This document shows, in pieces, positions 28,882 to 43,897 of a DNA stretch of 44,468 nt. The notes under the pieces were generated by a model that saw only the letters and a program-made list of their open reading frames with translations, ran no database searches and was not told the DNA's origin. The stretch's first letter is position 1. Each line of letters begins with the position of its first letter. Made by a program: the position numbers and the translations under genes. The stretch is from a virus (taxonomy: Duplodnaviria > Heunggongvirae > Uroviricota > Caudoviricetes), in IMG/VR virus record IMGVR_UViG_2778261246_000004, positions 1 through 44,468 of that record; one strand, given 5' to 3'.

Positions 28882-28956
<75 letters not shown>

Positions 28957-28959
28957 ATA

Positions 28960-29035
<76 letters not shown>

Positions 29036-29037
29036 AC

Positions 29038-29114: not shown

Positions 29115-29115
29115 T

Positions 29116-29191: not shown

Positions 29192-29311
29192 GAGCGCAGG
29201 ATAATAACGTTACAAAATCAATGTTGCAAGCACTCAAAAATCACCTGGTTAAAAATCACCCTGACCTCCTCCACCAGCGCATTCACCATGTCTATCCGAG
29301 ATAAGTGGCAC

Positions 29312-29336
29312 AAAAAAACCCGCTTGATGCGGGTTT
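29312..29336 (-). terminator. Strong rho-independent terminator on the minus strand (candidate late-operon tR')
   Basis: Minus-strand RNA ACCCGC-AUCAA-GCGGGU followed by U7. Confidence 0.5.
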
Positions 29337-29381
29337 AAGTTGTGTGGCGAAGCGACCACTCTTAACAGATTAAGATAGTTT

Positions 29382-29411
29382 TTGCGTACGCGTTAGTGAT
29401 TTTTTCATAAT
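29382..29411 (+). promoter_or_regulatory. Candidate sigma70 promoter for the plus-strand three-gene cassette
   Basis: TTGCGT - 18 nt - CATAAT about 45 nt upstream of the first ATG. Confidence 0.35.
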
Positions 29412-29456
29412 TATCTGTATCCTGTGACTATTTCTCTTGCGCAAAGGATGCTTTTG

Positions 29457-30335: not shown

Positions 30336-30338
30336 ATC

Positions 30339-30584
30339 ATGTCAATCCTAAGCATTATGCTTTACATCACTGTATTCATGGCTGTCGCAGCGACGGTCAG
30401 ATATGCTGTGCTTAGGTTCTTGGTTTGGGTAAAGCCGAATGCGTATATTGAACTAACCTACACCGATCCTGAAGGCAGAACAGCTAAAAGGAAAGTCAGC
30501 GTTAGAAACGAAAATGACGCAGAAGAGTTGGCGCTACTGCTACGCGAACTCAAAACTCGCAACGAAGCAAGTGCAGGAAGGTGA
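30339..30584 (+). CDS. Hypothetical small membrane protein, cassette gene 2 (81 aa, N-terminal TM helix)
   Basis: ATG 4 nt after gene 1 stop; N-terminus MSILSIMLYITVFMAVAATVRYAVLRFLVWV. Confidence 0.5.
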   Translation: MSILSIMLYITVFMAVAATVRYAVLRFLVWVKPNAYIELTYTDPEGRTAKRKVSVRNENDAEELALLLRELKTRNEASAGR

Positions 30585-30971
30585 ATGGCTAACACTAAAT
30601 CCTACCTGGCAATGCAGGCATGGTTTACCACCCTTATCACTGCGGGATTGAATTTCCTTTTTGACTGGCTTCCTCAATTAGCCTTCTTCAAATCATTGGC
30701 GCCTGGAGCTGCTGTCGGCTTATCTCATGTGGTAATTCTTCTTATCGCTTACATAGGTTTGCCTACGCTTAATGATGTAAGAATGAAAAGAGAAATAAAA
30801 ACGGCCAGAAAATTCATCACGAACTGCCTGGCCAACCCTAACCTAACACCAGACCAAATTGCGCACTACAACCAATGTCTTATCGATCTAGACAATAAGC
30901 TATTAAAAAACATAAATATTCGTATTGATGCTTTATCTGACGCCGAATCGAAAGCTCAAGCAAACGAGTAG
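30585..30971 (+). CDS. Hypothetical membrane protein, cassette gene 3 (128 aa, two TM helices)
   Basis: TGAATG stop-start junction with gene 2; hydrophobic helices WFTTLITAGLNFLFDWL and AAVGLSHVVILLIAYIGL. Confidence 0.5.
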   Translation: MANTKSYLAMQAWFTTLITAGLNFLFDWLPQLAFFKSLAPGAAVGLSHVVILLIAYIGLPTLNDVRMKREIKTARKFITNCLANPNLTPDQIAHYNQCLIDLDNKLLKNINIRIDALSDAESKAQANE

Positions 30972-30984
30972 TAACAGTCATAAC

Positions 30985-31335
30985 TTATGATAGAATCAAG
31001 CATATACATCCATCAATAAAGCCTAATGCAGTTTGCAGCTCCTTTCTTATAGTTCCATCTGAGCACCTGCGTTTCTTCGCGATTGAGCGTAGAGAAACAC
31101 CAATAACAAAGTGAGCTATGATCAGCTCATATTCCTCTGGTTTATACTTTCGCAACCGAGCCACACAACCGTCTATCATGATGCCTTCATCATCATCACA
31201 CTGGAGACGTGACTTTTTACCATGTGGCAAAAGCCCCTTGAAGCCCGCTGCTATCGGTTGCCAATCGACACCGCTATTTTCTGCTGCAGCCCATGCCCCC
31301 CAGCGATCTAAAACCTCATACATATCACGCCCCAT
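30985..31335 (-). CDS. Late-gene antiterminator Q (QuuD-like)
   Basis: 116-119 aa; LDRWGAWAA...W..IAAGFKGLL resembles DLP12 QuuD by memory; sits between rusA and the late region. Confidence 0.55.
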   Translation of the reverse strand: MGRDMYEVLDRWGAWAAAENSGVDWQPIAAGFKGLLPHGKKSRLQCDDDEGIMIDGCVARLRKYKPEEYELIIAHFVIGVSLRSIAKKRRCSDGTIRKELQTALGFIDGCICLILS

Positions 31336-31701
31336 TACCATCACCTCTGATTTCGCAAATCTTCACGCCCAGTCGCCCACCAGGAACGAGCTGACCGCGC
31401 ACAATATTGATTTCATCAAACTGCTCGTCGTCTATGAGAAGCCCCGCATGCGTCAGTGCATCCAGCGGTGCTTTCAGGATATTGTCCAGGTCGCGGCGGC
31501 GCTTATCCGGTGGCTCCGCAATAATCTTTATCGCCAGCCTTCCGGACAGGTTTAATTTCAACCGCTGCTGGCGAACAATTAGCGCCACATCATGGCGATA
31601 ACGCTTTCCGGCCTCCGAGATGAAATACGTATTCCATGACGTCGCCAGTAGGTATTCACCGTCGGCGGGTAAGGTAAAACAAATTCTATGCGTTCAGTCA
31701 T
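31325..31701 (-). pseudogene. rusA: rusA Holliday-junction resolvase disrupted by a 1-nt frameshift
   Basis: N-terminal frame from ATG 31701 gives MTERIEFVLPYPPTVNTYWRRHG then stops at 31580-31582; C-terminal frame (ORF 31325-31588) gives ...YFISEAGKRYRHDVALIV...PDKRRRDLDN...; both halves match RusA; join at GGAATACG (about 31628-31636) implies loss of one A. Confidence 0.65.
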
Positions 31702-32757
31702 TCATGCTTTCCACTTCAGGACACCCGAATTTCTCGCGTGCATTAAAAAACGAATCAGCAACAACAGCTGGCTGCCATGTTTTTCTTCAAAATCTTTTAC
31801 CCCGGCGTGCAGTTCGTTATGACATTTACGGCACAGCGGAATAACAAACAAATCGTCAGCCTTTGTTCCCATCCCTCCCAGTCCATGACCAATGATGTGA
31901 TGCGGATCATCTGCCTGATTACCGCACGTCATGCATTTCTGCGTTTTTACCCAGCGCGTGTATACAGGCATCTCTTCCCGTTGTGGTTTCTGGCGCTGGA
32001 GATACTGAGCCGGTGACTCCGGATCAACGGCAATGCTGACCACCGTCTTTTCCTGTGGCGGGTTTTGCTGGTGGGCGTGAGGCAGCGGCGCAAGATTTTT
32101 TGTGCGCTGTTTCAGTATGCTGGTGGTGGTCTGCTCTCCCGGTACGATGTCGCTTTCGCGGTACACCGAGTGGATTTTTTCCGCACGTAACCCCAGAGAA
32201 CGACGTAGTACTGCCTCCGGTAGCGCGTCTGCCACCTGATTGCAGACCGCCCACCAGGATAATTCAGCCAGCGATAATTCCCGCTCCTGTGTGCCATTCA
32301 TTGCGTGACCGATGACGTCAATCATCCATGCTGACAGGTTTTGATGAGCAAGTTGCTCGAGTGATTCGGATGTCTGGTCACGCAGCTGGTTGTCGCAGTG
32401 CCAGCACAACACCATTGCGCCGGTACCATAACGGTGAATGACGGTTTCGCTGTGATGATAATCGCCGTGTGGCCACTGGCAGGATTTAATATGGCGCAAC
32501 AGCCAGTCAGACAATGCACCGGCACCACCAGCAGCACGAATCACCCGTGCGTTACTGAAAAACGGTAGCAATGTTTTGTCTTCCACCAGCTGCTGGCGAA
32601 CGGCAGGAACGATGCCGGACGGCAGACCGCGCATGCTTTTCGGTTCCGGCTCCACCAGCACTCGAGGGTTATGGAATACCTGCATGGATTCACGACCTGG
32701 TTTAAGGAGCACCAGCCCGAGTTCCGGTATCAGAACAGGTCGAAGTAATACCCGCAC
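31702..32757 (-). CDS. DUF968 / YdfU-like phage protein with C-terminal HNH-like zinc-binding motif
   Basis: 351-aa ORF; C-terminal CMTCGN...DPHHI...CRKCHNELH; resemblance to Qin YdfU from memory; start codon uncertain (GTG in track). Confidence 0.6.
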   Translation of the reverse strand: MRVLLRPVLIPELGLVLLKPGRESMQVFHNPRVLVEPEPKSMRGLPSGIVPAVRQQLVEDKTLLPFFSNARVIRAAGGAGALSDWLLRHIKSCQWPHGDYHHSETVIHRYGTGAMVLCWHCDNQLRDQTSESLEQLAHQNLSAWMIDVIGHAMNGTQERELSLAELSWWAVCNQVADALPEAVLRRSLGLRAEKIHSVYRESDIVPGEQTTTSILKQRTKNLAPLPHAHQQNPPQEKTVVSIAVDPESPAQYLQRQKPQREEMPVYTRWVKTQKCMTCGNQADDPHHIIGHGLGGMGTKADDLFVIPLCRKCHNELHAGVKDFEEKHGSQLLLLIRFLMHARNSGVLKWKA

Positions 32758-32758
32758 G

Positions 32759-33031
32759 TTACCTCCAGATGCGTTGCTGGAATATGCGGGACGGACGCGG
32801 TGGGCGTTCGGAATAAGGGAGTCTGACGTAGATTATCCAGTGACGATAATCGAGGGTGAGGGCTTTCCTAAACTCATACCCACGTCTGCGGTAGTTCTGA
32901 ATCAGCCATTCGGCCTGTTCTTCAGTGCAGGGATCGTGCTGATACCAGTCATATTTGAATGCGTGCGAACGCCGCCCGTGCCTGCTGGCACGAACGGTAT
33001 CAGAATTGTGTAATTTGGTCTTGTGCGCCAT
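32759..33031 (-). CDS. Hypothetical nin-region protein
   Basis: ORF 32759-33085 (TTG); likely ATG start at 33031 (MAHKTKLHN). Confidence 0.4.
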   Translation of the reverse strand: MAHKTKLHNSDTVRASRHGRRSHAFKYDWYQHDPCTEEQAEWLIQNYRRRGYEFRKALTLDYRHWIIYVRLPYSERPPRPSRIFQQRIWR

Positions 33032-33099
33032 CTGTTTTCTCTGCTGGCGCAGCAGGTGCCAGTTGTTCAGGCTGGCGTGCAGCAATATTGTCTCTGATT

Positions 33100-33135
33100 T
33101 CTGTTGTCGTCAACAGGCAACGTGCTATCATCGAA
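33100..33135 (+). promoter_or_regulatory. Candidate parDE promoter with overlapping palindromic operator
   Basis: TTGTCG - 16 nt - TATCAT upstream of parD; inverted repeat CTGTTG-TCGT-CAACAG overlaps the -35. Confidence 0.4.
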
Positions 33136-33166
33136 TGGTGTTCTATCCTACTCCGTGAGGTTTACC

Positions 33167-33424
33167 ATGCGTACAACCCAACAATTCAGCATTACATTAA
33201 CTAACGAAATGGCTGACATGGTGCGCGCCCGTGTGGCTTCCGGTGCCTATGCTTCAGAAAGCGAGGTCATTCGTGAAGGACTTCGCGCACTGAATGAGCG
33301 CGATAAAGCAATCGAAGCGTGGTTAACGCATTCAGCCGCTCCCTCTCTTGATTCTATCCGCGAAAATCCAAACAACGGACGCTCCATTTCACAGGTTCGC
33401 GCCGCGATTCGATCCGGGAAGTAA
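33167..33424 (+). CDS. parD: Type II antitoxin, ParD family (ribbon-helix-helix)
   Basis: 85-aa product from ATG 33167 (GAGG RBS); FSITL..EMA..V...V.SG.Y.S.SEVIREGLR.L motif; 6-nt spacing to toxin gene. Confidence 0.7.
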   Translation: MRTTQQFSITLTNEMADMVRARVASGAYASESEVIREGLRALNERDKAIEAWLTHSAAPSLDSIRENPNNGRSISQVRAAIRSGK

Positions 33425-33429
33425 TCTGC

Positions 33430-33729
33430 ATGACATATGAAGTCATCATTACTCCTGAGGCCGAACAACAAATAATCAACCTGCACAGATATATAACGGA
33501 GAAAGCAGGGAACGTCATTGCTGACAATTATGCCAATGCGCTTCTTGATTATCTTGATGGGTTTTCTACATTCCCGCATCGGGGCAATAAACGCGATGAT
33601 ATTCGCCAGGGGATGCGGGTAACTCATTTCCGCCACAGAACGATTATTGCTTTTGCCGTTGATGGCAGAAAAGTCTTTATTGTCGGTATCTATCATGGTG
33701 GGCAAAGTTATGAAACCGATTTCTTATAA
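33430..33729 (+). CDS. parE: Type II toxin, ParE/RelE family
   Basis: 99-aa ORF directly downstream of parD; typical size and pairing. Confidence 0.7.
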   Translation: MTYEVIITPEAEQQIINLHRYITEKAGNVIADNYANALLDYLDGFSTFPHRGNKRDDIRQGMRVTHFRHRTIIAFAVDGRKVFIVGIYHGGQSYETDFL

Positions 33730-33934
33730 ACTTTTACCCACATCATTCCGGTGTTAGAATAAACCGTCCGCCTCCTCTCTTACTGGCGGATTCGTAGGCT
33801 ATATAAATCAAAGATCCCGGCTCATGTTTGTGTCGGGATCTTTTTTTCGGCGATTTATCCCCAGCGGCAAATCGAATACACCACCAGCGCCACCGCCATC
33901 GCAATTCCTACCGTGGTGAATGCCTCAGGCCAGG

Positions 33935-34330
33935 TCATCGATTCACCTCCTGCTCAATATTTTTAAGGTCATTTTCCGCATACAGTATTGCTGTTCTGGC
34001 TGCTCGTAACCGGGCTTTGGCGTTTTTCTCTTCACGTTCAAGTTTTGCCACAGCTTCACGAAGAGCATCCCGCTTTGCATAGAGTGATTTAATCTCAGAC
34101 ACTATGTTTTCACCGTTTCTCGCACGGTCGAGAACAAGCTCGAACGGATCTAAAGCCAATCCGCATCGGTTACAGGTAATCGTACGATTCACTTCTGAAA
34201 TTGTTGTACGGATATGCTGACAGCATTTTTGCTCGCCGCTTTTTCTGTCGGCTATCACAACGTTGAGGAGTCCTTCCTCCTCTGATTTTGGCTGTACCAG
34301 AGTGATAACATTGTCGACTTCATTTTTCAT
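33935..34330 (-). CDS. Zinc-finger plus coiled-coil protein (paralog A)
   Basis: 131 aa; C..H...C..C motif then coiled-coil tail ...EREEKNAKARLRAARTA; paralogous to the 34943-35299 product. Confidence 0.5.
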   Translation of the reverse strand: MKNEVDNVITLVQPKSEEEGLLNVVIADRKSGEQKCCQHIRTTISEVNRTITCNRCGLALDPFELVLDRARNGENIVSEIKSLYAKRDALREAVAKLEREEKNAKARLRAARTAILYAENDLKNIEQEVNR

Positions 34331-34845
34331 CAGCTCACCTCCTGCGGCGGTTCCGGTAGCGGCATCCAGTCTGTTACATTGCGGCTCTGTGTTTCAAAAA
34401 ATTCATCACCATTGCGGACAATATCGAAAAACTCACCGTCTCGATATTGCGCATAAAGAACGAATGCGCCATCACATAAAATAATTACGTGCTGACCGTC
34501 CACTGGCATCCGCTCACTACAGCTTATCCAACCATCCGGAATTACCGGCGCTGATGGCGCTGCGTAAAGTGGTGTTATTTCTGCCCGAAAGTCACCTATT
34601 TCATGCAGCCGCACCCACTGTTCAGCTTCTGCTTTGTCAGAATACATAGCGGTGAACGTATTATATTCATGGTCAATTTGCGTGAAGGTTGCCTTCCAGG
34701 CCACCGGCTCTGCTTCCAGCGATGCCAGTGCAATTTTGAATAACTCACCATCTACCTGTGCCATCCCTGAATTTGGGTGGCATTTCACAATTGCTATTTT
34801 TAATTTAGCTTCTTCGATTAATTGCTCTTTGGTTAATTCAGTCAT
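34330..34845 (-). CDS. DUF551-like phage protein
   Basis: 171 aa; C-terminal W.S..E..P...........W.PLPEPP motif typical of DUF551 (from memory). Confidence 0.55.
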   Translation of the reverse strand: MTELTKEQLIEEAKLKIAIVKCHPNSGMAQVDGELFKIALASLEAEPVAWKATFTQIDHEYNTFTAMYSDKAEAEQWVRLHEIGDFRAEITPLYAAPSAPVIPDGWISCSERMPVDGQHVIILCDGAFVLYAQYRDGEFFDIVRNGDEFFETQSRNVTDWMPLPEPPQEVS

Positions 34846-34942
34846 TTTTCATTACCGCCATTTCAGACGGTCTCCCGATGTTCTGAGGGGGCAGAAATCC
34901 CTCCGGTTAAGGATTAAATTTTATTTACAGCGCTAAATTTAT

Positions 34943-35299
34943 TTATTCAGTTCTGGATTTTGTCGCCCTGCGTATCCGCGCTTTCGCGTTACGCTCAATC
35001 TGAATTAACTTTTCTATATTTTTCCGTCTTTCCTGTTCCTCCTGGCGCAATAGCCTTACATCATCTGCCAGTCTGGTTTCTCTTTTCGCCACTGAGAGCA
35101 TCCAGTCAAACGGCTCCACAACTGCACCGCAGATTTTACAGCGGACCTGACGCTCTTTTTCGTCAACCCGGACAGAAGCGTGATGGCAGTATGGTCTTTC
35201 CGATGGCTCATAAAGAAAATTAACTTGATTACGTGGGTCATCCTCTTTTGCCGGAAATAAAACAATATTACTTAACTCATCTTCTGGTTTTATTTCCAT
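34943..35299 (-). CDS. Zinc-finger plus coiled-coil protein (paralog B)
   Basis: Start at ATG 35299 (MEIKPEDE, RBS AAAGGAGAGGAG); C.H...C..C motif and C-terminal ...IERNAKARIRRATKS parallel to paralog A. Confidence 0.5.
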   Translation of the reverse strand: MEIKPEDELSNIVLFPAKEDDPRNQVNFLYEPSERPYCHHASVRVDEKERQVRCKICGAVVEPFDWMLSVAKRETRLADDVRLLRQEEQERRKNIEKLIQIERNAKARIRRATKSRTE

Positions 35300-35356
35300 A
35301 CTCCTCTCCTTTGATGCGAATGCCAGCGGCAATTGAAGCCTGATAGTTAATTTCAC

Positions 35357-35779
35357 TCACAGCACCACCTCCTGAAATTTCCCCTGATAAAACGACAATA
35401 TGCGCTGCATAACTTCACTCTTCCGGCACTCGCGACAGATTATGTTCTGACGCCTGTCGTAGCGACGTATTTCTCCGTCAGGTAATGACCAGATAAGGTC
35501 CGGATCAACCGCAGATGGTTTCTTCAGCTTTGCCCTTGAGAGCTTTTTACGGGCATTTTGCCAGTCCTTACGCGCCTGTTCAGACGGGAATAACCCGTAA
35601 CCAGAGTTGTATACATCGCCGCTGGCAACCAGCTCTCTTGCGAGAACGCTCATCAGATATCTTGTCGCACCTGTCTTGACTTCCAGTTGCCGTAACGTCT
35701 CACGCCCACTCTGGCGTACGAGTTCAACAACCTGTCCTTTAATTTTTTCCCGCTCTTCTTGTGTAAAAACTTTTGCCAC
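35357..35779 (-). CDS. Hypothetical phage early protein
   Basis: 140-aa ORF in an operon with replication and nin genes; basic, with Cys pair C.EC. Confidence 0.4.
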   Translation of the reverse strand: MAKVFTQEEREKIKGQVVELVRQSGRETLRQLEVKTGATRYLMSVLARELVASGDVYNSGYGLFPSEQARKDWQNARKKLSRAKLKKPSAVDPDLIWSLPDGEIRRYDRRQNIICRECRKSEVMQRILSFYQGKFQEVVL

Positions 35780-35819
35780 AAGCCCTCCTGAAAATTACCT
35801 CATGACCAGAAATTAACAC

Positions 35820-36896
35820 TTACCCCCTGAAGCCCGGCGGAATTTCGTTATCCGGTTCAGAAATATGATTCACACAACGCTGGTTGTTCGTGCCGCTTAC
35901 CGGGAGCAACCAGGGGTTCTCAAAATTCCGGTCCGGTCCAAAAAACGTCGTCGCTCGCTGAACAAATTCCGTTCCCGTTTTCCCGGTAGCCGCCAGGTAT
36001 CTTGCGTAACGCCTCACGCCATCCAGCATGGCCTCTGGTGGCACCCCCTCGCGTAATCTGGCCTTCCAGGCACTGAAAGCTGATTTCTTCGGGTTTGCTC
36101 CGGCACGCAACGGGTACTCCCGCCAGACCTGTTCGAACACATCCGGATAATCCACTCGTCCCACAGACTGCCCGGTGTTTTCCGGGACTACCCGATCGGC
36201 TTCCCGCTGAATGGCGGAATCGGCTTCGGGCTGCTGCAGTTGGTGTGATTGCTCCAGCCTTGCGGTCATCACCTGCTGCACAGCGCCCGAATCGGCTTTC
36301 AGCGCATACGCTGAATCGGCTTCCGGTGTCGTGCCTGCTGGCTGACCAAGATTGACGGTCTGAACATCCCCTGCCTGGTTCGTGGCGTTTTTTACGCCAT
36401 GGACCATAGTGTTTTGATCTTCTTGATCTGTATCTTTATCTGTATCTTTATCTGTCGTGACTCGTCGTGACATGTGCGTGACATTTCGTGACGCGCCGTG
36501 ACAATCGCCATTTTGTTCCCGCTTTCTTTCCCTCTCTCGCTGCGCCCTCTTGCGCTCTGCAGGAGATTTTGCGGTTTGCGAAATATTGCCGTTGTCCTCT
36601 TTAAGCACCTGGCGTTTTTCCCATCCAGTGATTAAATCACCATCAAGTACCCGCCCCTGCATCGTCTGCAAAATTGAATCAATTACCTCTTCTGTCACGT
36701 CGAGCGCACTTGCCAAATCTTCTGTCGTGACATCAATGTGACCTCGCGTGACATTTCGTGACGCGCTCACCAGGAGGTGGATATACACTGCCATCACTGT
36801 TGCAATTGGCTGCCCTGACACCCTGGCAATTGTTCGCCACTTAGGGTCATTTGGCATGTCATGCCATAATCTGAGCCAGGCGTTAGCCATACTCAC
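35820..36896 (-). CDS. Replication initiation protein (replisome-organizer type) containing the putative origin iterons
   Basis: 358 aa; N-terminus MANAWLRLWHDMPNDPKW...IA..VY.HLL typical of phage replisome organizers (memory); two clusters of CGTGAC repeats inside the gene. Confidence 0.6.
   Translation of the reverse strand: MSMANAWLRLWHDMPNDPKWRTIARVSGQPIATVMAVYIHLLVSASRNVTRGHIDVTTEDLASALDVTEEVIDSILQTMQGRVLDGDLITGWEKRQVLKEDNGNISQTAKSPAERKRAQRERERKREQNGDCHGASRNVTHMSRRVTTDKDTDKDTDQEDQNTMVHGVKNATNQAGDVQTVNLGQPAGTTPEADSAYALKADSGAVQQVMTARLEQSHQLQQPEADSAIQREADRVVPENTGQSVGRVDYPDVFEQVWREYPLRAGANPKKSAFSAWKARLREGVPPEAMLDGVRRYARYLAATGKTGTEFVQRATTFFGPDRNFENPWLLPVSGTNNQRCVNHISEPDNEIPPGFRG
36434..36515. 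repeat. Iteron cluster 1: 2.5 copies of ATCTGTATCTTT then five CGTGAC repeats at 10-11 bp spacing
   Basis: Seen directly; 22-bp element GCGTGACATTTCGTGACGCGC shared with cluster 2. Confidence 0.6.
36690..36765. repeat. Iteron cluster 2: four to five GTCACG/CGTGAC repeats including second copy of GCGTGACATTTCGTGACGCGC
   Basis: Seen directly, about 260 bp from cluster 1 inside the same gene. Confidence 0.6.
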
Positions 36897-36961
36897 CTCT
36901 TCTGATACCGAATCTTTTTACTCACGAGTTGCCGGAAGCGATTCGATATGGCTATTGTCAG

Positions 36962-37387
36962 TCAATGTACTGCCACAGCATTTCCTGCCGGGCCACCACG
37001 GTTCATCTGATTGAAACCGGCGATTGCCACTGCGACAAAATCATCAGCGTCTCTCACCAGTCGCTCCCGCGTCTCCACCAGCTCCCGAAAATAAGCTGAA
37101 CTGTGGCTGCGCATTCTGGCCACCAGCAAAGGTGGCATTGCCTTTTCGATCGCTGGTAACAACGCCTGAATTTTTTCAACTGCATCAGGGGTGTCTTTCT
37201 CTACCCAGCGGAAAATTTTCTGGGTATTGCGAGCCAGGGCTTCCGGATGGCTGTCGTCATACAGTTCTGGGAACGTCATACCCAGTTCAAAATAAGCCCT
37301 GGTTATTTCAGCTGCCGGAACTTTTTCACCGTCCGGATGCGCCCAGGCATTCATCGCCATGCGGATGTGTTCATGCTTGATTTTCAT
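36962..37387 (-). CDS. CII-like / YdaT-like early regulator
   Basis: 141-aa ORF immediately downstream of the Cro-like gene; resemblance to Rac YdaT from memory. Confidence 0.45.
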   Translation of the reverse strand: MKIKHEHIRMAMNAWAHPDGEKVPAAEITRAYFELGMTFPELYDDSHPEALARNTQKIFRWVEKDTPDAVEKIQALLPAIEKAMPPLLVARMRSHSSAYFRELVETRERLVRDADDFVAVAIAGFNQMNRGGPAGNAVAVH

Positions 37388-37652
37388 GAATCAAGCTCCT
37401 AGAAAGTGGTTGTGTTAACGTTTTGGTATCTTCCAGCTCGGGCCAAATATTCATCCAATCAAAAGGCCTTAGTTGCTGACGTGTAACTTCACCATTACTG
37501 GCTCGCTCAATAAGGACACATAACGATGCCCCTAACACTTGACCTTTACTCAATGCCTTTCTTAGATAACCGATGCTGGTACCACACTCGCATGCAAACA
37601 TACGCTGTTCATCTGACGAAAGAGAATTGAGAAATATTCTTAATTCTTCCAT
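37371..37652 (-). CDS. Cro-like HTH regulator (YdaS/DicC analogue)
   Basis: 93-aa ORF divergent from the repressor gene; HTH-like segment EQRMFACECGTSIGYLRKAL. Confidence 0.55.
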   Translation of the reverse strand: MEELRIFLNSLSSDEQRMFACECGTSIGYLRKALSKGQVLGASLCVLIERASNGEVTRQQLRPFDWMNIWPELEDTKTLTQPLSRSLIHENQA

Positions 37653-37679
37653 AGCTACTCCTTAGTAAACACAGTAAAG

Positions 37680-37735
37680 AATACCCACAGGTAAACAAAA
37701 GTCAATACCCACAGGTTGTTTACCTTGCGGTAATC
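37680..37735. promoter_or_regulatory. Immunity-region operators: three copies of a TACC-N4-5-GGTA half-palindrome between divergent Cro-like and repressor genes
   Basis: ATACCCACAGGTA (x2) and TTACCTTGCGGTAA seen directly. Confidence 0.5.
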
Positions 37736-37752
37736 GCATCTATTATTTACCT

Positions 37753-38172
37753 ATGGACAAATATGAATTTAGACGACAGCAACTCATCAAAATTCGTGAT
37801 GAGAAATGCGATGGTAAAGCGGTTAACGTGGCCAGAAAGATCGGGCGCGAGCCTTCTTATGTATCAAGAATGTTGTACCCAGAGGGGAAAAAGGGAAAAA
37901 AACGGATCGCTGATGATATGGTGGAGATTATCGAAGAGTCCTTTGGGTTACCCCGGGGATGGATGGATGGTATCGTTTCATCATCAACGAACACAGCCTC
38001 CAGTTATGAAACAAGGGTTCTAACGCCACGACAACGTATTTTTTTAGATCTCTTAGACGAACTGCCAGAAAGTGAAGCGGATAACTTATTAAAAACTCTT
38101 GAAGAGAAAAAACAGTATTACAATATGATCTACGAAGAAATCCGTAAAAAGAAAGCACAAAACGCATCATAG
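37753..38172 (+). CDS. Prophage repressor, DicA/RacR-like HTH protein
   Basis: 139 aa; HTH VNVARKIGREPSYVSRML; C-terminus L.P...FLDLLDELPESEAD resembles DicA (memory). Confidence 0.65.
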   Translation: MDKYEFRRQQLIKIRDEKCDGKAVNVARKIGREPSYVSRMLYPEGKKGKKRIADDMVEIIEESFGLPRGWMDGIVSSSTNTASSYETRVLTPRQRIFLDLLDELPESEADNLLKTLEEKKQYYNMIYEEIRKKKAQNAS

Positions 38173-38212
38173 CTCACCAAACAACTAGTCACCAGTTAAG
38201 ACACCGCAAAAA

Positions 38213-38253
38213 GTTACCCACGGGTATTTACTTTTTAAATACCTATGGGTATC
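38213..38253. promoter_or_regulatory. Two further palindromic operators (TTACCCACGGGTA, ATACCTATGGGTAT) between the repressor gene and ydfA, overlapping a candidate promoter
   Basis: Seen directly; same TACC...GGTA motif as the upstream set. Confidence 0.5.
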
Positions 38254-38437
38254 CTTCTTTTCATACCAACCCACCCCGCCCCACAGAATGCAGGGCAATA
38301 CTTCGAGTTACCAGGCAGTGGTCAGGGGTTAAGTAGCCAGCCCGAGGCGTAAGAACATGACGGCAGGGTTCAACTTTAATAACTATGCAGCAGGTTTTTG
38401 TTCCGCTACCCCGGCGTTAAGGGGAAATGAGGTCAGC

Positions 38438-38593
38438 ATGGATACTATCGATCTTGGCAACAACGAATCTCTGGTGTACGGCGTGTTTCCCAACCAGGAC
38501 GGCACATTCACCGCGATGACGTATACCAAAAGCAAAACGTTTAAAACCGAAAATGGTGCCCGTCGCTGGCTGGAAAGAAACTCAGGTGAGTGA
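38438..38593 (+). CDS. ydfA: YdfA-like small protein (51 aa)
   Basis: ATG 38438 with GAGG RBS; same size and position as Qin ydfA. Confidence 0.5.
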   Translation: MDTIDLGNNESLVYGVFPNQDGTFTAMTYTKSKTFKTENGARRWLERNSGE

Positions 38594-38594
38594 T

Positions 38595-38723
38595 ATGGAT
38601 TTCGACACAATCATGGAAAAGGCTTACGAAGAATACTTCGAAGGTCTTGCCGAAGGCGAAGAAGCTCTCAGCTTCAACGAATTTAAACAGGCGCTTTCCA
38701 GTTCGGCAAAATCTAACGGCTGA
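38595..38723 (+). CDS. ydfB: YdfB-like small protein (42 aa)
   Basis: ATG 1 nt after ydfA stop; MDFDTIMEKAYEEYFEGLAEGEEALSFNEFKQALSSSAKSNG; not in ORF track (short). Confidence 0.5.
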   Translation: MDFDTIMEKAYEEYFEGLAEGEEALSFNEFKQALSSSAKSNG

Positions 38724-38752
38724 TAAGCGAAGCAGCACCGCGAGGAATCAGT

Positions 38753-38971
38753 ATGCAGAAACGAGAACCCGTCATCATCGCGCCAGACTATACCGATGAT
38801 GAACTTTATGAGTGGATGCGCCAGAAAATTAATGCAGCGCAGGATCTGAAATGGGCCAATGAAGCCAGGGCTAAGCAGGCTGAAAATCTGTCCGCTCTGG
38901 AGCAGGATATCACCAGGCTGGAAAAAGCAGCGGCATTAAGCATTGCCAGAATGATTACATACCCGCGTTAA
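38753..38971 (+). CDS. ydfC: YdfC-like small protein (72 aa)
   Basis: 72-aa ORF with GAGGAA RBS, preceding DicF. Confidence 0.5.
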   Translation: MQKREPVIIAPDYTDDELYEWMRQKINAAQDLKWANEARAKQAENLSALEQDITRLEKAAALSIARMITYPR

Positions 38972-39311
38972 TAGCTAACCAACGAAGCTAAGGTTGGTAA
39001 TTAAGGAGTTCTCCACGGGTGAGGTGGAGTGCGTGCGCCGGACACGGGTGAGCATCCGGCACTGACAGTTTACTGAAAGGATATTTCCATGAAAAGTCAG
39101 ACCATAACGCGAAAGCGCACGGCGAGGTAGCTGGTTCATAGATAGCCTGTCGTTAAATTTTCGTCGACCGTGCGCTTCCGGTTGTGGCACTCCGCGAAAT
39201 GGCGCGGCGGTAAGTATGGCGGGGTTATTCCTTCCCCGTTGAGGACACCGGGTTGTCAGGTTGACCATACGCTTAAGTGACAACCCCGCTGCAACGCCCT
39301 CTGTTATCAAT

Positions 39312-39364
39312 TTTCTGGTGACGTTTGGCGGTATCAGTTTTACTCCGTGACTGCTCTGCCGCCC
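39312..39364 (+). ncRNA. dicF: DicF small regulatory RNA
   Basis: UUUCUGGUGACGUUUGGCGGUAUCAGUUUUACUCCGUGACUGCUCUGCCGCCC plus U5 matches remembered E. coli DicF; lies between ydfC-like and dicB as in Qin. Confidence 0.8.
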
Positions 39365-39538
39365 TTTTTAAAGTGAATTTTGTGATGCGGTGAATGCGGC
39401 TAAGCGCACGCGGAACAGTTAAAACCAAAAACAGTGTTATGGGTGGATTCTCTGTATCCGGCGTTAATTGTTAACTGGTTAACGTCACCTGGAGGCACCA
39501 GGCACCGCATCACAAAATTCATTGTTGAGGACGCGATA

Positions 39539-39727
39539 ATGGAAACGTTATTACCAAACGTTAATACGTCTGAAGGTTGTTTTGAAATTGGTGTCACTAT
39601 CAGTAACCCTGTATTTACTGAAGATGCCATTAACAAGAGAAAACACGAACGGGAGTTACTAAATAAAATATGCATTCTTTCAATGCTGGCCCGTTTACGT
39701 CCGATACAAAAAGGATGCTGGCAATGA
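39539..39727 (+). CDS. dicB: Cell division inhibitor DicB
   Basis: 62-aa product M.TLLPNVNTSEGCFEIGVTISNPVFTEDAINKRK.ERELLNKICI.SMLARLR matches DicB; RBS GAGG. Confidence 0.85.
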   Translation: METLLPNVNTSEGCFEIGVTISNPVFTEDAINKRKHERELLNKICILSMLARLRPIQKGCWQ

Positions 39728-39915
39728 ATACAGCATTTGCACTTGTTCTGACAGTTTTTCTTGTTTCCGGAGAGCCAGTTGATATTGCAGTCAGTGTTCA
39801 CAGAACAATGCAGGAATGTATGGCAGCAGCAACCGAACAGAAAATTCCCGGTAACTGTTACCCGGTCGATAAAGTTATTCACCAGGATAGTAACGAAATC
39901 CCGGCAGGTCTTTAA
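39724..39915 (+). CDS. ydfD: YdfD-like small membrane protein
   Basis: ATGA overlap with dicB stop; MNTAFALVLTVFLVSGEPVDIAVSVHRTMQECM.AATEQKIPGNCYPVDKVIHQD..EIPAGL matches Qin YdfD. Confidence 0.7.
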   Translation: MNTAFALVLTVFLVSGEPVDIAVSVHRTMQECMAAATEQKIPGNCYPVDKVIHQDSNEIPAGL

Positions 39916-40007
39916 AACAGTTCCGTAATAAACATCCGATTTCATTCTTATATGCCAGCAATGGCAGGGATTTGTTCACCATTAAATCTGTAATGAGGTA
40001 AAACAAA

Positions 40008-42479
40008 ATGAGTAAAGTCTTTATTTGCGCCGCCATTCCGGACGAACAGGCAATAAAGGAAGAAGGTGCAGTCGCTGTAGCTACTGCCATTGAAGCCGGT
40101 GATGAACGTCGCGCCCGCGCAAAATTTCACTGGCAATTCCTGGAACATTATCCGGCTGCTCAGGACTGCGCTTATAAATTTCTTGTCTGCGAGGATAAAC
40201 CCGGTATACCCCGCCCTGCCCTCGATTCCTGGGATGCTGAATATATGCAGGAAAACCGCTGGGATGAGGAGTCTGCTTCCTTTGTCCCGGTTGAGACTGA
40301 ATCAGATCCGATGAACGTCACTTTTGACAAGCTGGCCCCTGAAGTACAGAACGCTGTCATGGTTAAGTTCGACACATGTGAAAACATCACTGTTGATATG
40401 GTGATTAGCGCACAGGAATTGTTGCAGGAAGACATGGCAACATTCGACGGCCATATCGTTGAAGCGTTGATGAAAATGCCAGAAGTAAACGCCATGTATC
40501 CGGAGCTTAAGCTGCATGCCATCGGGTGGGTTAAGCATAAATGTAAGCCTGGTGCCAAATGGCCCGAAATTCAGGCAGAGATGTGCATCTGGAAAAAACG
40601 TCGCGAAGGTGAACGCAAGGAAACCGGAAAATACACGTCTGTTGTTGATCTCGCCCGCGCCAGACCCAATCAACAGAACACTGAAAATTCAACAGGAAAA
40701 ATCAACCCGGTCATTGCTGCCACTCATCGCGAATACAAGCAGACATGGAAAACACTGGATGACGAACTGGCCTACGCTCTCTGGCCTGGTGATGTGGATG
40801 CCGGAAACATTGACGGCAGCATCCATCGCTGGGCAAAAAATGAAGTTATCGACAACGACCGCGAAGACTGGAAGCGTATCTCGGCATCAATGCGCAAACA
40901 GCCTGATGCCCTTCGCTACGACCGCCAGACTATTTTTGGCCTTGTCCGTGAACGTCCGATCGACATTCACAAAGACCCTGTGGCACTGAACAAATACATT
41001 ACTGAATACCTGACTACAAAGGGCGTGTTTGAAGATGAAGGAAGAAATCAGAGCGCAACTGATACTCTCTCGTCGCCAGTACCAGAAACTGATGCAGTGG
41101 AAACGGCAATTCCGGACAACGAAAAAACCGAATGCAAAGTGGAAGTCGAACCATCTGTAGAGCGTGAGGGGCCGTTCTACTTCCTCTTCACCGACAAGAA
41201 TGGCGAAAAATACGGTCGCGCAAACAAACTTTCTGGTCTGGATAAGGCGCTGGCTGCCGGGGCTACTGAAATCACGAAAGAAGAATATTTCGCCCGCAAA
41301 AACGGTACATACTCAGGTTCACAACAAAATACTGGTGCATCTGACACGACCGCACAACCAGAGCCGGTAAAAGTTACCGCTGACGAAGTAAACAAAATTA
41401 TGCAGGCAGCCAATATCAGCCAGCCTGACGCCGATGAACTGCTTGCAGTATCACGTGGTGAATTTGTTGCAGGGATTAGCGATCCGAATGATCCGAAATG
41501 GGTGAAGGGGATTGAAACCCGCGATTCTGTGAACCAGAACCAGCAAGAAACGGAACAGAACGACCAGAAAGCGGAACAAAACAGCCCAAATGCGTTACAA
41601 AACGAGCCAGAAACGAAACAATCCGAACCAGTAGCGCAACAGGAACCGGAAAAAGTCTGCACCGCCTGCGGTCAGAGCGGTGGCGGCAACTGCCCTGATT
41701 GTGGCGCGGTGATGGGCGACGCAACATACCAGGAAACATTCGATGAAGAGAATCAGGTTGAAGTTCAGGAAAATGATCCGGAGGAAATGGAAGGCGCTGA
41801 ACATCCACACAAGGAGAACCCTGGCGGCAATCAGCATCACGCCAGCGATAATAAAACTGGCGAGGCGACAGATCCCTTAATTAAGGTGAATGGTCATTAT
41901 AAGCTCACATCCACCAGCAGAGCGGGGATTCATCTGATGATCGACCTTGAAACAATGGGAAAAAATCCCGATGCCCCGATTATCTCAATAGGCGCAATAT
42001 TTTTCGATCCACAAACCGGAGAGATGGGGCCGGAATTTAGCAAGACCATCGATCTGGATACTGCTGGCGGAGTCATTGATCGTGACGTCATTAAATGGTG
42101 GCTGAAGCAATCACGTGAAGCGCAGTCTGCCATTATGACCGATGAAATCCCGTTAGATGATGCACTACTGCAATTGCGGGAATTTATCGACGAAAACTCC
42201 GGTGAATTTTTTGTTCAGGTCTGGGGTAATGGGGCCAACTTCGACAACGTGATTTTACGCCGTTCATACGAACGACAGGGTATCCCCTGCCCGTGGCGCT
42301 ACTGCAACGATCGCGATGTACGCACAATCGTTGAGCTGGGGAAAGCCATAGACTTCGATGCCAGAACTGCTATCCCATTCGAAGGTGAGCGCCATAATGC
42401 ACTTGATGACGCTCGTTACCAGGCAAAATACGTTTCAGCTATCTGGCAAAAACTGATCCCGAGTCAGGCTGATTTTTAA
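40008..42479 (+). CDS. Large early-region protein with C-terminal DEDDh 3'-5' exonuclease domain, zinc-ribbon and acidic low-complexity linker
   Basis: 823 aa; C-terminal motifs IDLETMG, WGNGANFD, HNALDDARYQ (DnaQ-like); CTACG...CPDCG zinc ribbon; Gln/Glu-rich linker. Confidence 0.55.
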   Translation: MSKVFICAAIPDEQAIKEEGAVAVATAIEAGDERRARAKFHWQFLEHYPAAQDCAYKFLVCEDKPGIPRPALDSWDAEYMQENRWDEESASFVPVETESDPMNVTFDKLAPEVQNAVMVKFDTCENITVDMVISAQELLQEDMATFDGHIVEALMKMPEVNAMYPELKLHAIGWVKHKCKPGAKWPEIQAEMCIWKKRREGERKETGKYTSVVDLARARPNQQNTENSTGKINPVIAATHREYKQTWKTLDDELAYALWPGDVDAGNIDGSIHRWAKNEVIDNDREDWKRISASMRKQPDALRYDRQTIFGLVRERPIDIHKDPVALNKYITEYLTTKGVFEDEGRNQSATDTLSSPVPETDAVETAIPDNEKTECKVEVEPSVEREGPFYFLFTDKNGEKYGRANKLSGLDKALAAGATEITKEEYFARKNGTYSGSQQNTGASDTTAQPEPVKVTADEVNKIMQAANISQPDADELLAVSRGEFVAGISDPNDPKWVKGIETRDSVNQNQQETEQNDQKAEQNSPNALQNEPETKQSEPVAQQEPEKVCTACGQSGGGNCPDCGAVMGDATYQETFDEENQVEVQENDPEEMEGAEHPHKENPGGNQHHASDNKTGEATDPLIKVNGHYKLTSTSRAGIHLMIDLETMGKNPDAPIISIGAIFFDPQTGEMGPEFSKTIDLDTAGGVIDRDVIKWWLKQSREAQSAIMTDEIPLDDALLQLREFIDENSGEFFVQVWGNGANFDNVILRRSYERQGIPCPWRYCNDRDVRTIVELGKAIDFDARTAIPFEGERHNALDDARYQAKYVSAIWQKLIPSQADF

Positions 42480-42540
42480 TGTTCAACTGTCGCCAGTTGT
42501 CGTTGGTATTCTGCAACTGGCGCGTTCCGGAGTGATAGCC

Positions 42541-42810
42541 ATGAGCGAACAGTACCTGATAACGCTCGATGAGTGGAAGCCAAAACGGTTCAGTCTCCCA
42601 ATAACAAACACTACCCTGGTGAAATACGGAAAACTAGGATACATCGTTCCAAGACCACAAAAAATTCGTGGGCGTTGGCTGATAGATCGCCGGGCAGTAT
42701 TTGTTGGACCTGGTGAAACGGGAATTGCGCCGGAAATTCATACTGGCGATGATGATGCACTGAAGGAGATTTTAACTCATGTCACCGAGGCCACGAAAAA
42801 ACAGCACTGA
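42541..42810 (+). CDS. xis: Excisionase (lambda Xis-like)
   Basis: YLITLDEW..KR........V.....G..VP.P.K..GRWLIDRRAV parallels lambda Xis; directly upstream of and overlapping int. Confidence 0.6.
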   Translation: MSEQYLITLDEWKPKRFSLPITNTTLVKYGKLGYIVPRPQKIRGRWLIDRRAVFVGPGETGIAPEIHTGDDDALKEILTHVTEATKKQH

Positions 42811-43897
42811 CGTAACCGGTCTTTACGAAAAGTTTGATCGCAGAACTGGCAGGGTTTACTACCAGTATAAAAATCCTGTGACTGGAAAATTTCACGGACT
42901 CGGAACAGACAAAGGTAAGGCAGAAAAAATCGCTTCCACAGCCAATCAGCGAATAGCTGCAGCAGAAGCTGAATATTTCATGCGCAAAATTGATGAAAGT
43001 CCGTCAGCAACAAAACGTCGGGGTATCAGATTAAAGGCATGGGTTGATCGATATCTGAAAATACAGGACGCGCGACTGAAAAATGGAGATATTGCAGCTA
43101 CAACTCACAAAGAAAAAGCCCGAATGGCTGCATACCTGGTTTCCCGTCTGGGAAACCACCCATTGAAAGAACTGGAAGTAAGAGACTTTGCATTAATACT
43201 GGATGAGTGGCTGGATAAAGACATGGTCAGCACAGCGAGAGTAAATCGTGGATTATGGGTTGATATTTATAAAGAAGCACAGCATGCAGGGGAAGTTCCT
43301 CCTGGATGGAATCCTCCGGAGGCTACCCGTAAACCGATCCCTAAAGTAACCAGAGCCAGACTCACCCTGGAGGACTGGCAAAAAATTTACAATTCAACAC
43401 CAGAAAAACACTTTATCCGTAACGCAATGCTTCTTGCGATTGTTACTGGTCAGCGCCGTGATGACATTTGCCACATGCGTTTTTCAGATGTGTGGAACGA
43501 ACACTTGCATATCACCCAGGGAAAAACCGGAATGCGTCTGGCGTTACCGCTTACGCTACGCTGTGATGCCATTGGAATATCGCTAAAAGAAGTGATTGAT
43601 GGATGCAAGGACAGAATATTGAGTCCATACCTGATTCATAGTCGGCACCAGAAACAACCAAAACCAATGAGTAAAGATAACCTGAGCGACTACTTTGCTA
43701 AAGCGCGGGATCTGGCAGGAATAACTCCACCAGCAGGAAAAACACCACCAACATTTCATGAACAACGCTCCCTGTCAGAACGACTGTACCGCGCACAGGG
43801 TATCGATACAAAAACATTACTGGGACATAAAGTCCAAGCAACCACCGATCGTTATAACGATACTCGTGGTCAGGAATGGGTTAAATTGGTTGTTTGA
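42779..43897 (+). CDS. int: Tyrosine site-specific integrase (lambda Int family)
   Basis: 372 aa; C-terminal catalytic box TFHEQRSLS.RLY...LLGHK...TTDRYNDTRG (H-x-x-R and Tyr) parallels lambda Int. Confidence 0.85.
   Translation: MSPRPRKNSTDVTGLYEKFDRRTGRVYYQYKNPVTGKFHGLGTDKGKAEKIASTANQRIAAAEAEYFMRKIDESPSATKRRGIRLKAWVDRYLKIQDARLKNGDIAATTHKEKARMAAYLVSRLGNHPLKELEVRDFALILDEWLDKDMVSTARVNRGLWVDIYKEAQHAGEVPPGWNPPEATRKPIPKVTRARLTLEDWQKIYNSTPEKHFIRNAMLLAIVTGQRRDDICHMRFSDVWNEHLHITQGKTGMRLALPLTLRCDAIGISLKEVIDGCKDRILSPYLIHSRHQKQPKPMSKDNLSDYFAKARDLAGITPPAGKTPPTFHEQRSLSERLYRAQGIDTKTLLGHKVQATTDRYNDTRGQEWVKLVV

Follow-up and report, generated by a model that had tools for sequence, protein, structure and literature searches.

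RecE (exonuclease VIII) of the Rac prophage of E. coli K-12 is a large, acidic protein encoded in an early-left operon directly upstream of xis and int, with an N-terminus of the Exonuc_VIII family (PF06630) and a PD-(D/E)XK 5'-3' exonuclease as its catalytic domain (PF12684, residues 564/606-866). In the full-length protein, the N-terminal part of RecE boosts linear-linear recombination (PMC11611040). Lambdoid phages also encode relatives of RecE that have no nuclease domain, termed 'RecE-2', and DnaQ-type nucleases have already been described in their early-left operons (PMC12315714). The same study counts DnaQ-like nucleases such as that of phage g341c among the members of the Rec module, excludes from it DnaQ-type genes that adjoin int, and notes that the usual effect of 3'-5' exonucleases on homologous recombination is inhibitory.

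Exonucleases of the DEDDh (DnaQ-like) group are found in other settings as well. T4 DexA (PDB 8KEL) is a single-domain DNase whose accepted roles include scavenging of host DNA, and its single-domain E. coli homologue EcD ('HREX'), an enzyme said to act on 5hmC DNA, is reported to give resistance to T4 (PMC12153337); the primer-derived ends of EcD, MIDTET... and ...TIPETYD, indicate a short stand-alone protein. Rv2179c of M. tuberculosis, the founder of Pfam family PF16473, is according to the family description a stand-alone chromosomal exoribonuclease, and a literature search for Rv2179c together with phage returned nothing relevant. ISG20-like exonucleases termed 'TONDO' have been reported to act against RNA-phage 3' ends, and prophage DEDDh exonucleases with auxiliary domains are reported to act against MS2 and Qbeta (PMC13344964). 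Finally, the Qin prophage of K-12 carries ydfE, a pseudogene truncated by IS2, for which our literature search found incidental mentions only.

Here we set against these systems an intact gene of the ydfE type, located in a window of 44,468 nucleotides, by which we mean the whole stretch of phage DNA that was analysed. Our conclusion is that its product is a catalogued modular variant and not a new kind of system, because the middle of RecE is retained, with a DEDDh nuclease replacing RecE's 5'-3' nuclease.

Modules and distribution of the ydfE-type protein

The gene encodes an early protein of 823 residues (Table 1), as the initial annotation of this DNA had proposed, and its product is 100% identical to WP_032084640.1 from E. 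coli ETEC1749 and 95% identical to a protein of phage mEp460 (LR597641). As in the case of RecE, the protein is large and acidic (pI 4.68, net charge -57) and its gene occupies the early-left position directly upstream of xis and int. The motifs on which that annotation relied are real: the DnaQ-like stretches IDLETMG (aa 645-651), WGNGANFD (aa 739-746) and HNALDDARYQ (aa 796-805), a zinc ribbon formed by CTAC (aa 551-554) and CPDC (aa 562-565), which are the sole two CxxC pairs in the protein, and a Gln/Glu-rich linker (aa 501-547; 21% Q, 21% D+E).

Table 1. Positions of the ydfE-type gene, its modules and its surroundings in the window
Feature	Position	Strand	Details
DicF sRNA, same early-left operon, upstream	39313..39364	+	Rfam RF00039, 76.7 bits
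dicB (39539-39727) and ydfD (39724-39915), directly upstream	39539..39915	+	annotation transferred from L001 and L004
ydfE-type 'exonuclease', intact 823-aa ORF	40008..42479	+	ATG to TAA
Folded N-terminal module (Pfam YdfE_N / YdfE_C), aa 1-205	40008..40622	+	
Helical 'mid' domain, aa 245-340	40740..41027	+	AF2 pLDDT ~90; BLASTP to RecE
Small beta-beta-alpha-beta-alpha domain, aa 388-432	41169..41303	+	invariant columns; AF2 pLDDT ~90
DNA-level segment in common with Rac recE	41432..41881	+	nt 1425-1874 of the gene correspond to recE nt 1365-1772, 77% identity
Zinc ribbon, aa 548-570 (C551-x2-C554 ... C562-x2-C565)	41649..41717	+	AF2 pLDDT ~72; weak Pfam DZR match
Acidic linker, scaffold to head, aa 571-640, predicted disordered	41718..41927	+	pLDDT <50
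Rv2179c-like DEDDh (DnaQ-like) 3'-5' exonuclease head, aa 642-813 (predicted)	41931..42446	+	
xis (~42541-42810) and int (42779-43897), directly downstream	42541..43897	+	
15 Chi sites (GCTGGTGG), clustered	26790..43734		12 on the - strand, the late-gene strand

The N-terminal region had been described as unassignable, and a search of the PDB for a structural relative of the aa 1-205 module found none. Homology nevertheless assigns most of it: aa 1-205 belong to PF27430 (YdfE_N) and PF27432 (YdfE_C), both of which are matched in precomputed results for homologues more than 91% identical and for divergent relatives, and the RecE-like region begins at aa ~262. The mid domain has a distant likeness to RecE residues ~278-340 and a dN/dS of 0.06-0.09. 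The small domain, with the motif R.GPFY...GRANK...EI..EEY..K and a dN/dS of 0.03-0.05, is invariant in relatives with a DEDDh head and in those with an annealase-like tail, and falls in an alignment gap of K-12 RecE. In the acidic linker that precedes the head, 23% of residues are D+E and dN/dS rises to 0.5-0.65.

A rarity implied by the initial annotation proved wrong. Among complete E. coli genomes, 4799 of 5426 (~88%) carry the gene, in up to 10 copies and annotated as "exonuclease", and in 3533 genomes a copy extends over 80% or more of its length; carriers include O157:H7 and ETEC prophages. The full-length protein falls in PHROG phrog_2082, Pfam families bear the name of ydfE, and the gene is among the commonest prophage genes of E. 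coli. Sequences more than 91% identical filled the results of a first large homologue search; diversity was recovered through a representative library and a divergent query. The suggested connection to ydfE of K-12 was correct: K-12-type strains hold the first 767 nt of the gene, at 95% identity and in the same dicB-ydfD-ydfE context, interrupted by IS2, and so retain the N-terminal module but neither the RecE-like centre nor the nuclease head.

Such insertions are recurrent (IS2 in K-12-type strains, IS1203 in O157:H7 EC4115 and strain 2013C-4081) and the gene is commonly found in cryptic prophages, as would be expected of a decaying mosaic left by prophage recombination and without current function. 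We regard this explanation as barely credible. Compared with diverged copies, dN/dS is 0.17-0.21 over the whole gene, 0.03-0.10 in the folded units and 0.3-0.7 in the linkers; reading frames are intact and free of stop codons in copies with dS of up to 0.4-1.0, the catalytic residues are preserved, and near-complete copies persist in the 3533 genomes counted above. Every folded unit of the protein is under purifying selection, and on dN/dS gene decay is rejected.

The junction with RecE

By BLASTP, aa ~262-625 align with residues 278-591 of Rac RecE (E=1e-61, 39% identity overall), and over aa 470-625 identity reaches ~80%. The likeness is also visible at the level of DNA, in a segment that holds the RGEFV.GISDP.DPKW (RGEF) motif, the Q/E-rich linker, the zinc ribbon and the acidic linker. 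The initial annotation had not recognised the zinc ribbon, the acidic linker and the centre of the protein as parts that belong to RecE, the zinc ribbon being conserved there in the C519..C533 region. Because of the ~80% identity over aa 470-625, the protein is best viewed as a mosaic of the RecE family in which the catalytic head has been swapped, and not as an unrelated protein.

Similarity to RecE ends at codon 625, equivalent to RecE codon 591, which is where the PD-(D/E)XK nuclease of RecE starts; thus at the same junction RecE has a 5'-3' exonuclease, whereas the protein studied here has a putative DEDDh 3'-5' exonuclease. A natural hybrid, P0128, consists of recE nt 1-1772 followed by a DEDDh head, with an identical boundary. 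These alignments mark out codon 625 as a sharp junction at which heads appear to have been swapped. K-12 RecE matches PF12684 in Pfam, whereas the ydfE-type protein has no Pfam match to this domain, nor to Exonuc_VIII PF06630. Against the NCBIfam RecE equivalog NF007259 it scores 283.8 bits (cutoff 1269), with aa 444-626 covering profile positions 437-603 of 877 only. Domain searching did not, then, return a RecE-type exonuclease of conventional architecture, in keeping with the view of the protein as non-canonical. At the N-terminus, where RecE has Exonuc_VIII and the protein described here has YdfE_N/C, homology is undetectable, and a remote relationship between the two was rejected (hhalign probability 0.2%).

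A further form of the scaffold is seen in 'RecE-2'. These proteins are 32-46% identical to aa 1-450, share the YdfE_N/YdfE_C module, mid domain and small domain, and are encoded in the same early-left slot, but end in a ~270-aa non-nuclease domain instead of the DEDDh head. We provisionally identify this tail as a Rad52-like annealase. Sequence searches of the PDB with the tail, started from one sequence and from a profile, gave nothing significant, and a Pfam search of ten of these type-3 relatives at E<=0.001 returned zero families. Taken together, the alignments suggest that the scaffold carries interchangeable heads, namely PD-(D/E)XK, DEDDh or, probably, a Rad52-like annealase. Should the head swap be as we describe it, it would offer an inroad to the N-terminal two-thirds of RecE, which is relevant for linear-linear recombineering, it would help to explain DNA-end processing in Chi-rich lambdoid phages that lack Red, RecET and Erf, and the natural chimeras (nucleases of opposite polarity, and an annealase) could serve as recombineering reagents.

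The DEDDh head and its candidate substrates

We are confident that the C-terminal 180 aa are an Rv2179c-like DEDDh exonuclease, and predict it to be active. The match to PF16473 is well above what chance would give and spans profile positions 2-177 of 177 (E=2.6e-66; 223.1 bits against a cutoff of 27), and this end-to-end match places the head in one family with Rv2179c, although here the domain sits in a phage-borne fusion. When the PDB was searched with the whole protein, DexA alone was matched (E=1.4e-5). The two have the DEDDh fold in common at 28% identity, and D646, E648, D746, H796 and D801 align with D7, E9, D119, H186 and D191 of DexA, so that the five catalytic residues of the ExoI, ExoII and ExoIII-h motifs are all present; the alignment shows the predicted two-metal active site to be intact. 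The head is under purifying selection (dN/dS 0.08-0.10). Unlike DexA and EcD, the head is fused to a scaffold of 640 aa.

Given the description of Rv2179c, the founder of the family, as an exoribonuclease, the head could act on RNA and might trim or turn over early-left transcripts or sRNAs such as DicF. The Pfam name ('3'-5' exoribonuclease Rv2179c-like') agrees with this, as do the NCBI label '3'-5' exoribonuclease' often given to homologues and the co-transcription of the gene with DicF, an sRNA that is processed from the operon transcript. We nevertheless think an RNase very unlikely: the names are transferred annotations, DexA, the nearest solved relative, is a DNase, Rac-like prophages that have no dicF also carry this head (P0128), and its stand-alone form is found in erf-ssb-abc2 DNA recombination modules. 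The closest such homologue, from the P22-like phage g341c, is 57% identical to the head and lies between erf/ssb and abc2. Like the ydfE-type head, gp29 of epsilon34 and g341c belongs to PF16473 and is encoded in an early-left operon (PMC12315714), but it is a stand-alone protein of ~180 aa within the Rec module, while the ydfE-type head is part of a fusion, is encoded next to int, and has neither a SAP nor an SSB nor an anti-RecBCD gene as a neighbour.

The homology to DexA, together with 56-60% identity to stand-alone E. coli exonucleases that are apparently of EcD's kind, raises a different possibility, that of a prophage defence or superinfection-exclusion nuclease whose head would degrade 5hmC DNA or RNA-phage 3' ends and whose scaffold would sense or target them. 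The antiphage activities of EcD and of prophage DEDDh exonucleases with auxiliary domains, described above, favour such a role, and so does the fact that thousands of genomes retain the gene intact, frequently more than once. The neighbouring dicB, moreover, is known to confer phage resistance. We consider defence unlikely all the same. W152 and D169 of DexA, proposed to recognise 5hmC, are replaced by C766 and A780 (the alignment near D169 being uncertain), EcD, to judge by its primers, is short and stands alone, and the TONDO candidates are smaller than 500 aa, with a link to the ydfE-type family not established. A search of PADLOC-DB v2 gave no specific match, only one to a generic Cas-associated DEDDh model (E=1.1e-4, 20.9 bits). 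Because the gene sits in a repressor-controlled early-left operon by xis-int, expression in a quiescent lysogen would not be expected, and a head that changes places with the RecE nuclease or an annealase suggests a part in DNA recombination. If the protein were a defence nuclease after all, its abundance would make the gene a major contributor to the phage resistance of E. coli.

The known role of DexA in scavenging also suggests a function in host takeover or nucleotide scavenging or, as a variant, in anti-defence, by removal of host immune nucleic acids (3'-ended ssDNA, RNA signals or guides). Early expression beside the host-directed dicB, dicF and ydfD would fit. However, temperate lambdoid phages are not generally known to degrade host DNA, no anti-defence family is matched, and the 640-aa conserved scaffold, common to RecE and to the annealase fusions, is left unexplained, making us decidedly sceptical of this proposal. 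The initial annotation had offered a non-canonical recombination nuclease or an anti-defence nuclease: for the latter we found nothing in support, PADLOC giving a generic DEDDh match only, while for the former the evidence is real and comes from context.

Genomic context and proposed role

The gene was said to occupy the exo/bet slot next to xis-int without an annealase partner, and this is borne out both by gene order, with no recT, bet or erf between the gene and xis-int, and by a family search among the early-region ORFs, which found no RecT, Bet, Erf or Rad52 member. When compared with Rac and phage 673R7, therefore, it does not form a RecET pair with an adjacent recT, and with dicB, ydfD and xis/int as neighbours it falls outside the Rec-module nucleases in the sense of PMC12315714. 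Several observations count against a recombination role: an adjacent annealase gene is absent both here and beside the hybrid P0128, DnaQ-type genes next to int are the ones that the Rec-module definition leaves out, and the effect of 3'-5' exonucleases on homologous recombination is usually inhibitory (PMC12315714).

Chi sites are far more frequent in the window than chance would predict (15 against 1.8 expected; none of 100 shuffles reached 15), and most share one orientation. Neither a SAP nor an anti-RecBCD gene was found in the early region of the phage. With oriented Chi sites and neither type of gene, the phage fits the class that PMC12315714 describes as RecBCD-dependent.

The explanation that we prefer, and which we judge to have an even chance of being right, is that the protein is a recombination-associated 3'-5' exonuclease acting at DNA ends, carried on a RecE-like scaffold. 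It would be made from the dicF-dicB-ydfD early-left transcript upon prophage induction or infection. Its scaffold, comprising YdfE_N/C, the helical mid domain, the small domain, the RGEF motif and the zinc ribbon on acidic disordered linkers, would guide the head towards a host partner or the ends of phage DNA. The head itself, placed where RecE has its 5'-3' exonuclease, would trim 3' ends. A structural comparison of the scaffold found no informative relative, and for this reason its targeting role is purely inferred; the scaffold common to both proteins does, however, have a recombination phenotype in RecE, given the effect of the RecE N-terminal part on linear-linear recombination (PMC11611040). 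As the phage is Chi-rich and has no annealase or anti-RecBCD gene, trimming would most likely make ends ready, or edit them, for recombination that depends on host RecBCD/RecA, with the blunting of 3' tails as one example. Another possibility is that it exposes 5' tails, which could be joined without an annealase.

More tentatively, and with rather less expectation of being correct, we suggest that the YdfE/RecE scaffold is a general lambdoid adaptor that addresses the same site or partner whichever head it carries, the DEDDh version serving annealase-independent, RecBCD/Chi-coupled recombination in the very abundant Chi-rich prophages of E. coli and the 'RecE-2' proteins being fused SSAPs. 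If so, many phages scored as lacking an annealase, such as ZF40, would in fact have one, in the form of 'RecE-2'. One of the Chi sites lies within the ydfE-type gene itself, at 41911-41918.

Architecture and maintenance of the 823-aa protein

The intact ydfE-type gene of the window encodes an 823-aa protein that is acidic over its whole length (pI 4.68, net charge -57). The initial annotation had reported DnaQ-like motifs in its C-terminal catalytic domain, here termed the head, and all three are found (IDLETMG, aa 645-651; WGNGANFD, aa 739-746; HNALDDARYQ, aa 796-805). By sequence, the nearest solved relative is the T4 exonuclease DexA (227 aa; 8KEL; E=1.4e-5), and the active site is intact, with D646, E648, D746, H796 and D801 aligning to DexA D7, E9, D119, H186 and D191. 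The zinc ribbon and Gln/Glu-rich linker are also present, the former as the protein's only CxxC pairs (aa 551-554 and 562-565) and the latter at aa 501-547.

The N-terminal region had been called large and unassignable. It is large, but two recently made Pfam families named for the K-12 Qin prophage gene ydfE cover its first 205 residues, and BLASTP aligns aa 262-625 to residues 278-591 of K-12 RecE, exonuclease VIII of the Rac prophage. Identity to RecE is ~80% from aa 470 on, across the RGEFV.GISDP.DPKW motif, the Q/E linker, the zinc ribbon and the acidic linker. DNA similarity to recE (nt 1425 to 1874 of the gene, 77%) ends sharply at codon 625, corresponding to RecE codon 591. This swap junction lies just N-terminal of the PD-(D/E)XK match in RecE (PF12684, residues 615-850); a review places the start of the RecE nuclease domain at residue 564 (PMC11611040). 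No homology was detected between the YdfE-type and RecE N-termini by hhalign (probability 0.2%).

Relative to RecE, then, the nuclease head has been swapped for one of predicted opposite polarity. A Pfam scan of the protein found neither the Exonuc_VIII nor the PD-(D/E)XK domain of RecE, and the NCBIfam RecE equivalog matched aa 444-626 only, scoring 283.8 bits where the cutoff is 1269. Because three defining features of RecE are missing, the protein is not a RecE. It is best classed as a RecE-type variant, and not as a new kind of system.

Features of the window, the 823-aa protein and its long relatives (P handles)
Feature	Position	Strand	Details
823-aa ORF	40008-42479	+	ATG to TAA; YdfE-type N-terminus, DEDDh head
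Full-length DicF sRNA	39313-39364	+	Rfam, 76.7 bits; dicB then ydfD downstream
N-terminal module	first 205 residues		Pfam YdfE_N (PF27430) and YdfE_C (PF27432)
Rv2179c-like DEDDh exonuclease	aa 642-813		Pfam, E=2.6e-66
P0128, natural hybrid	L009:6001-8418		E. coli GCA_039763085.1; K-12 RecE N-terminus (100% identical over 1-200), DEDDh head (96% identical to window protein's)
P0142, P0258			more distant RecE-type N-terminal part, DEDDh head
P0132			YdfE-type N module, PD-(D/E)XK head
P0143, P0200			mid region of 823-aa protein, PD-(D/E)XK head
P0129 and many others			YdfE type, third tail of ~270 aa without Pfam domain
P0125, P0256			YdfE type, fourth tail (phrog_26058) without Pfam domain

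In an AlphaFold2 model of the scaffold (aa 1-640; input alignment of 19 sequences, 32-94% identity), aa 1-205, 245-340 and 388-432 form confident folded units, each with pLDDT of about 90, while the zinc ribbon (aa 548-570) forms a weaker fourth; the acidic linkers separating the units are disordered. Codon-wise comparison with three diverged E. coli copies put dN/dS at 0.03-0.10 for all folded units, the unassigned N-terminal module among them, and at 0.3-0.7 for the linkers; none of the three copies contains a stop codon. Thus selection maintains the whole multi-domain protein.

The gene has matches in 4799 of 5426 complete E. coli genomes, at a median of 2 places per genome (highest 10), and 3533 genomes hold a copy that spans 80% or more of it. 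The proposed link to ydfE is right, because in K-12-type strains IS2 has truncated the gene, leaving just its first 767 nt. Copies in O157:H7 EC4115 and strain 2013C-4081 are interrupted by IS1203; elsewhere they are mostly intact and under purifying selection, and we consider decay of the gene a less likely account. These recurrent IS interruptions are at homologous loci in NC_011353.1, NZ_CP027573.1 and NZ_CP026348.1. An identical protein (WP_032084640.1, 'exonuclease') is recorded for strain ETEC1749, phage mEp460 encodes one 95% identical, and phrog_2082 covers all 823 positions. A literature search found no characterisation of YdfE or of the 823-aa protein. It is real, was correctly described, and is ordinary in being ubiquitous and catalogued. 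Of greater interest, as side results, are the exchange of heads across the family and the provisional assignment of 'RecE-2' proteins to the annealases.

Head swapping and a probable annealase tail

When 1.84 billion representatives were searched exhaustively with aa 1-640, no more than 252 relatives emerged, and mapping of the long relatives by domain probes reveals combinatorial mosaicism of N-terminal parts and C-terminal heads (see table). The P0128 gene joins recE nt 1-1772 (92% to K-12) to nt 1447-2472 of the window gene (head 91%). It lies in a Rac-like prophage (sieB, kilR, ydaE) without recT, directly followed by xis-like and int genes. In P0125 and P0256, both from the representative search, the fourth tail ends in the conserved motif ...QQQLT.AAL.G.CANPA...

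In the databases, the third-tail class numbers about 2700 proteins, from Klebsiella, Salmonella, Enterobacter and Citrobacter, which NCBI names 'exodeoxyribonuclease VIII' despite their having no recognisable nuclease domain. They appear to be the 'RecE-2' class of Zheng et al. (PMC12315714), RecE relatives without a nuclease domain whose role is given there as unknown. Pfam Rad52_Rad22 matched 5 of 10 members below threshold (E 0.017-0.12), always at the motif KKSLTDA.KKAL..GF, and matched a stand-alone homologue in Pseudomonas phage AH02 over profile positions 14-127 of 153 (E=0.012). The AlphaFold2 model (core pLDDT about 90) consists of a helix, a long beta-hairpin sheet, a helix and then a helical bundle. 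We think it probable that the third tail is a Rad52-like annealase, an assignment that stays provisional because Foldseek gave no significant match to the model.

Gene context agrees with this assignment. A Klebsiella prophage has the third-tail fusion between Gam and Sipho_Gp157; in AH02 the stand-alone homologue is followed by Sipho_Gp157; and Pseudomonas phage phiC725A (L012:3483-7454) has a compact module of a Rad52-like tail homologue, DUF1351, an RNase_T-type DEDDh exonuclease, SSB and RdgC. In this module, too, a 3'-5' exonuclease is encoded next to a probable annealase. Pectobacterium phage ZF40, classed as having anti-RecBCD function only (PMC12315714), has a protein with an annealase-like tail (JQ177065.1 2738-3547; 64% identity) and may encode an annealase.

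Genomic context and possible function

Within the dicBF operon, the exonuclease gene takes the distal position. As had been noted for Bet/RecT, PGAP annotation of close prophages and Pfam scans of early ORFs in the window that had no assignment gave no RecT, Bet, Erf or Rad52 annealase, and PGAP annotates neither Gam nor Abc2 in closely related prophages. Chi (GCTGGTGG) occurs 15 times in the window against 1.8 expected, a number reached in 0 of 100 shuffles. The sites span 26790-43734, 12 of them on the - (late-gene) strand, all in the Q/lysis/replication/early half with none in the structural genes (26 kb). The prophage fits the lambdoid class without its own annealase or anti-RecBCD that is typically Chi-rich and dependent on host RecBCD (Zheng et al., PMC12315714).

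From three independent associations we infer that both halves of the protein are tied to phage DNA-end and recombination transactions. The head and the nuclease of RecE replace one another; the scaffold is shared with the probable annealase; and the closest stand-alone homologue of the head among characterised phages, gp29 of P22-like phage g341c (57% identical), is encoded inside a recombination module, between erf/ssb and abc2. Zheng et al. (PMC12315714) accept DnaQ-like nucleases such as that of epsilon34 as Rec-module members, exclude int-adjacent DnaQ-type genes, and describe recombination as usually inhibited by 3'-5' exonucleases. Given these associations, the reading we favour, at roughly even odds, is a scaffold-delivered 3'-5' DNA-end exonuclease working with host RecBCD/RecA in a Chi-rich phage. 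The scaffold would bring the head to DNA ends where, from general knowledge of E. coli exonucleases, it might for example blunt 3' tails and thereby let RecBCD load, or permit annealase-independent joining via 5' tails.

One rival explanation is a defence nuclease. EcD, an E. coli DexA homologue, is reported to cleave 5hmC DNA only and to protect against T4 (PMC12153337), and ISG20-like prophage DEDDh exonucleases are reported to act against RNA phages (PMC13344964). However, EcD is a short stand-alone ORF, the proposed 5hmC-reading residues of DexA, W152 and D169, have C766 and A780 as their aligned counterparts here, the PADLOC match is generic only, and the gene sits in a repressed early operon. 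An RNA-directed role is less likely, as is one in host scavenging or anti-defence.

A low-GC island downstream of Q (28-31 kb, 42-46% GC) contains four tandem tRNA genes (28885-29191, -). The two ORFs next to these genes, at 29424-30971 (+) and of 303 aa (phrog_3243) and 128 aa (phrog_26468), are possibly moron or cargo genes. Just outside int, a DUF2335-family membrane-type ORF (44001-44468, -) gave a weak PADLOC match to PD-T4-6 (E=0.0025), which is probably due to chance.
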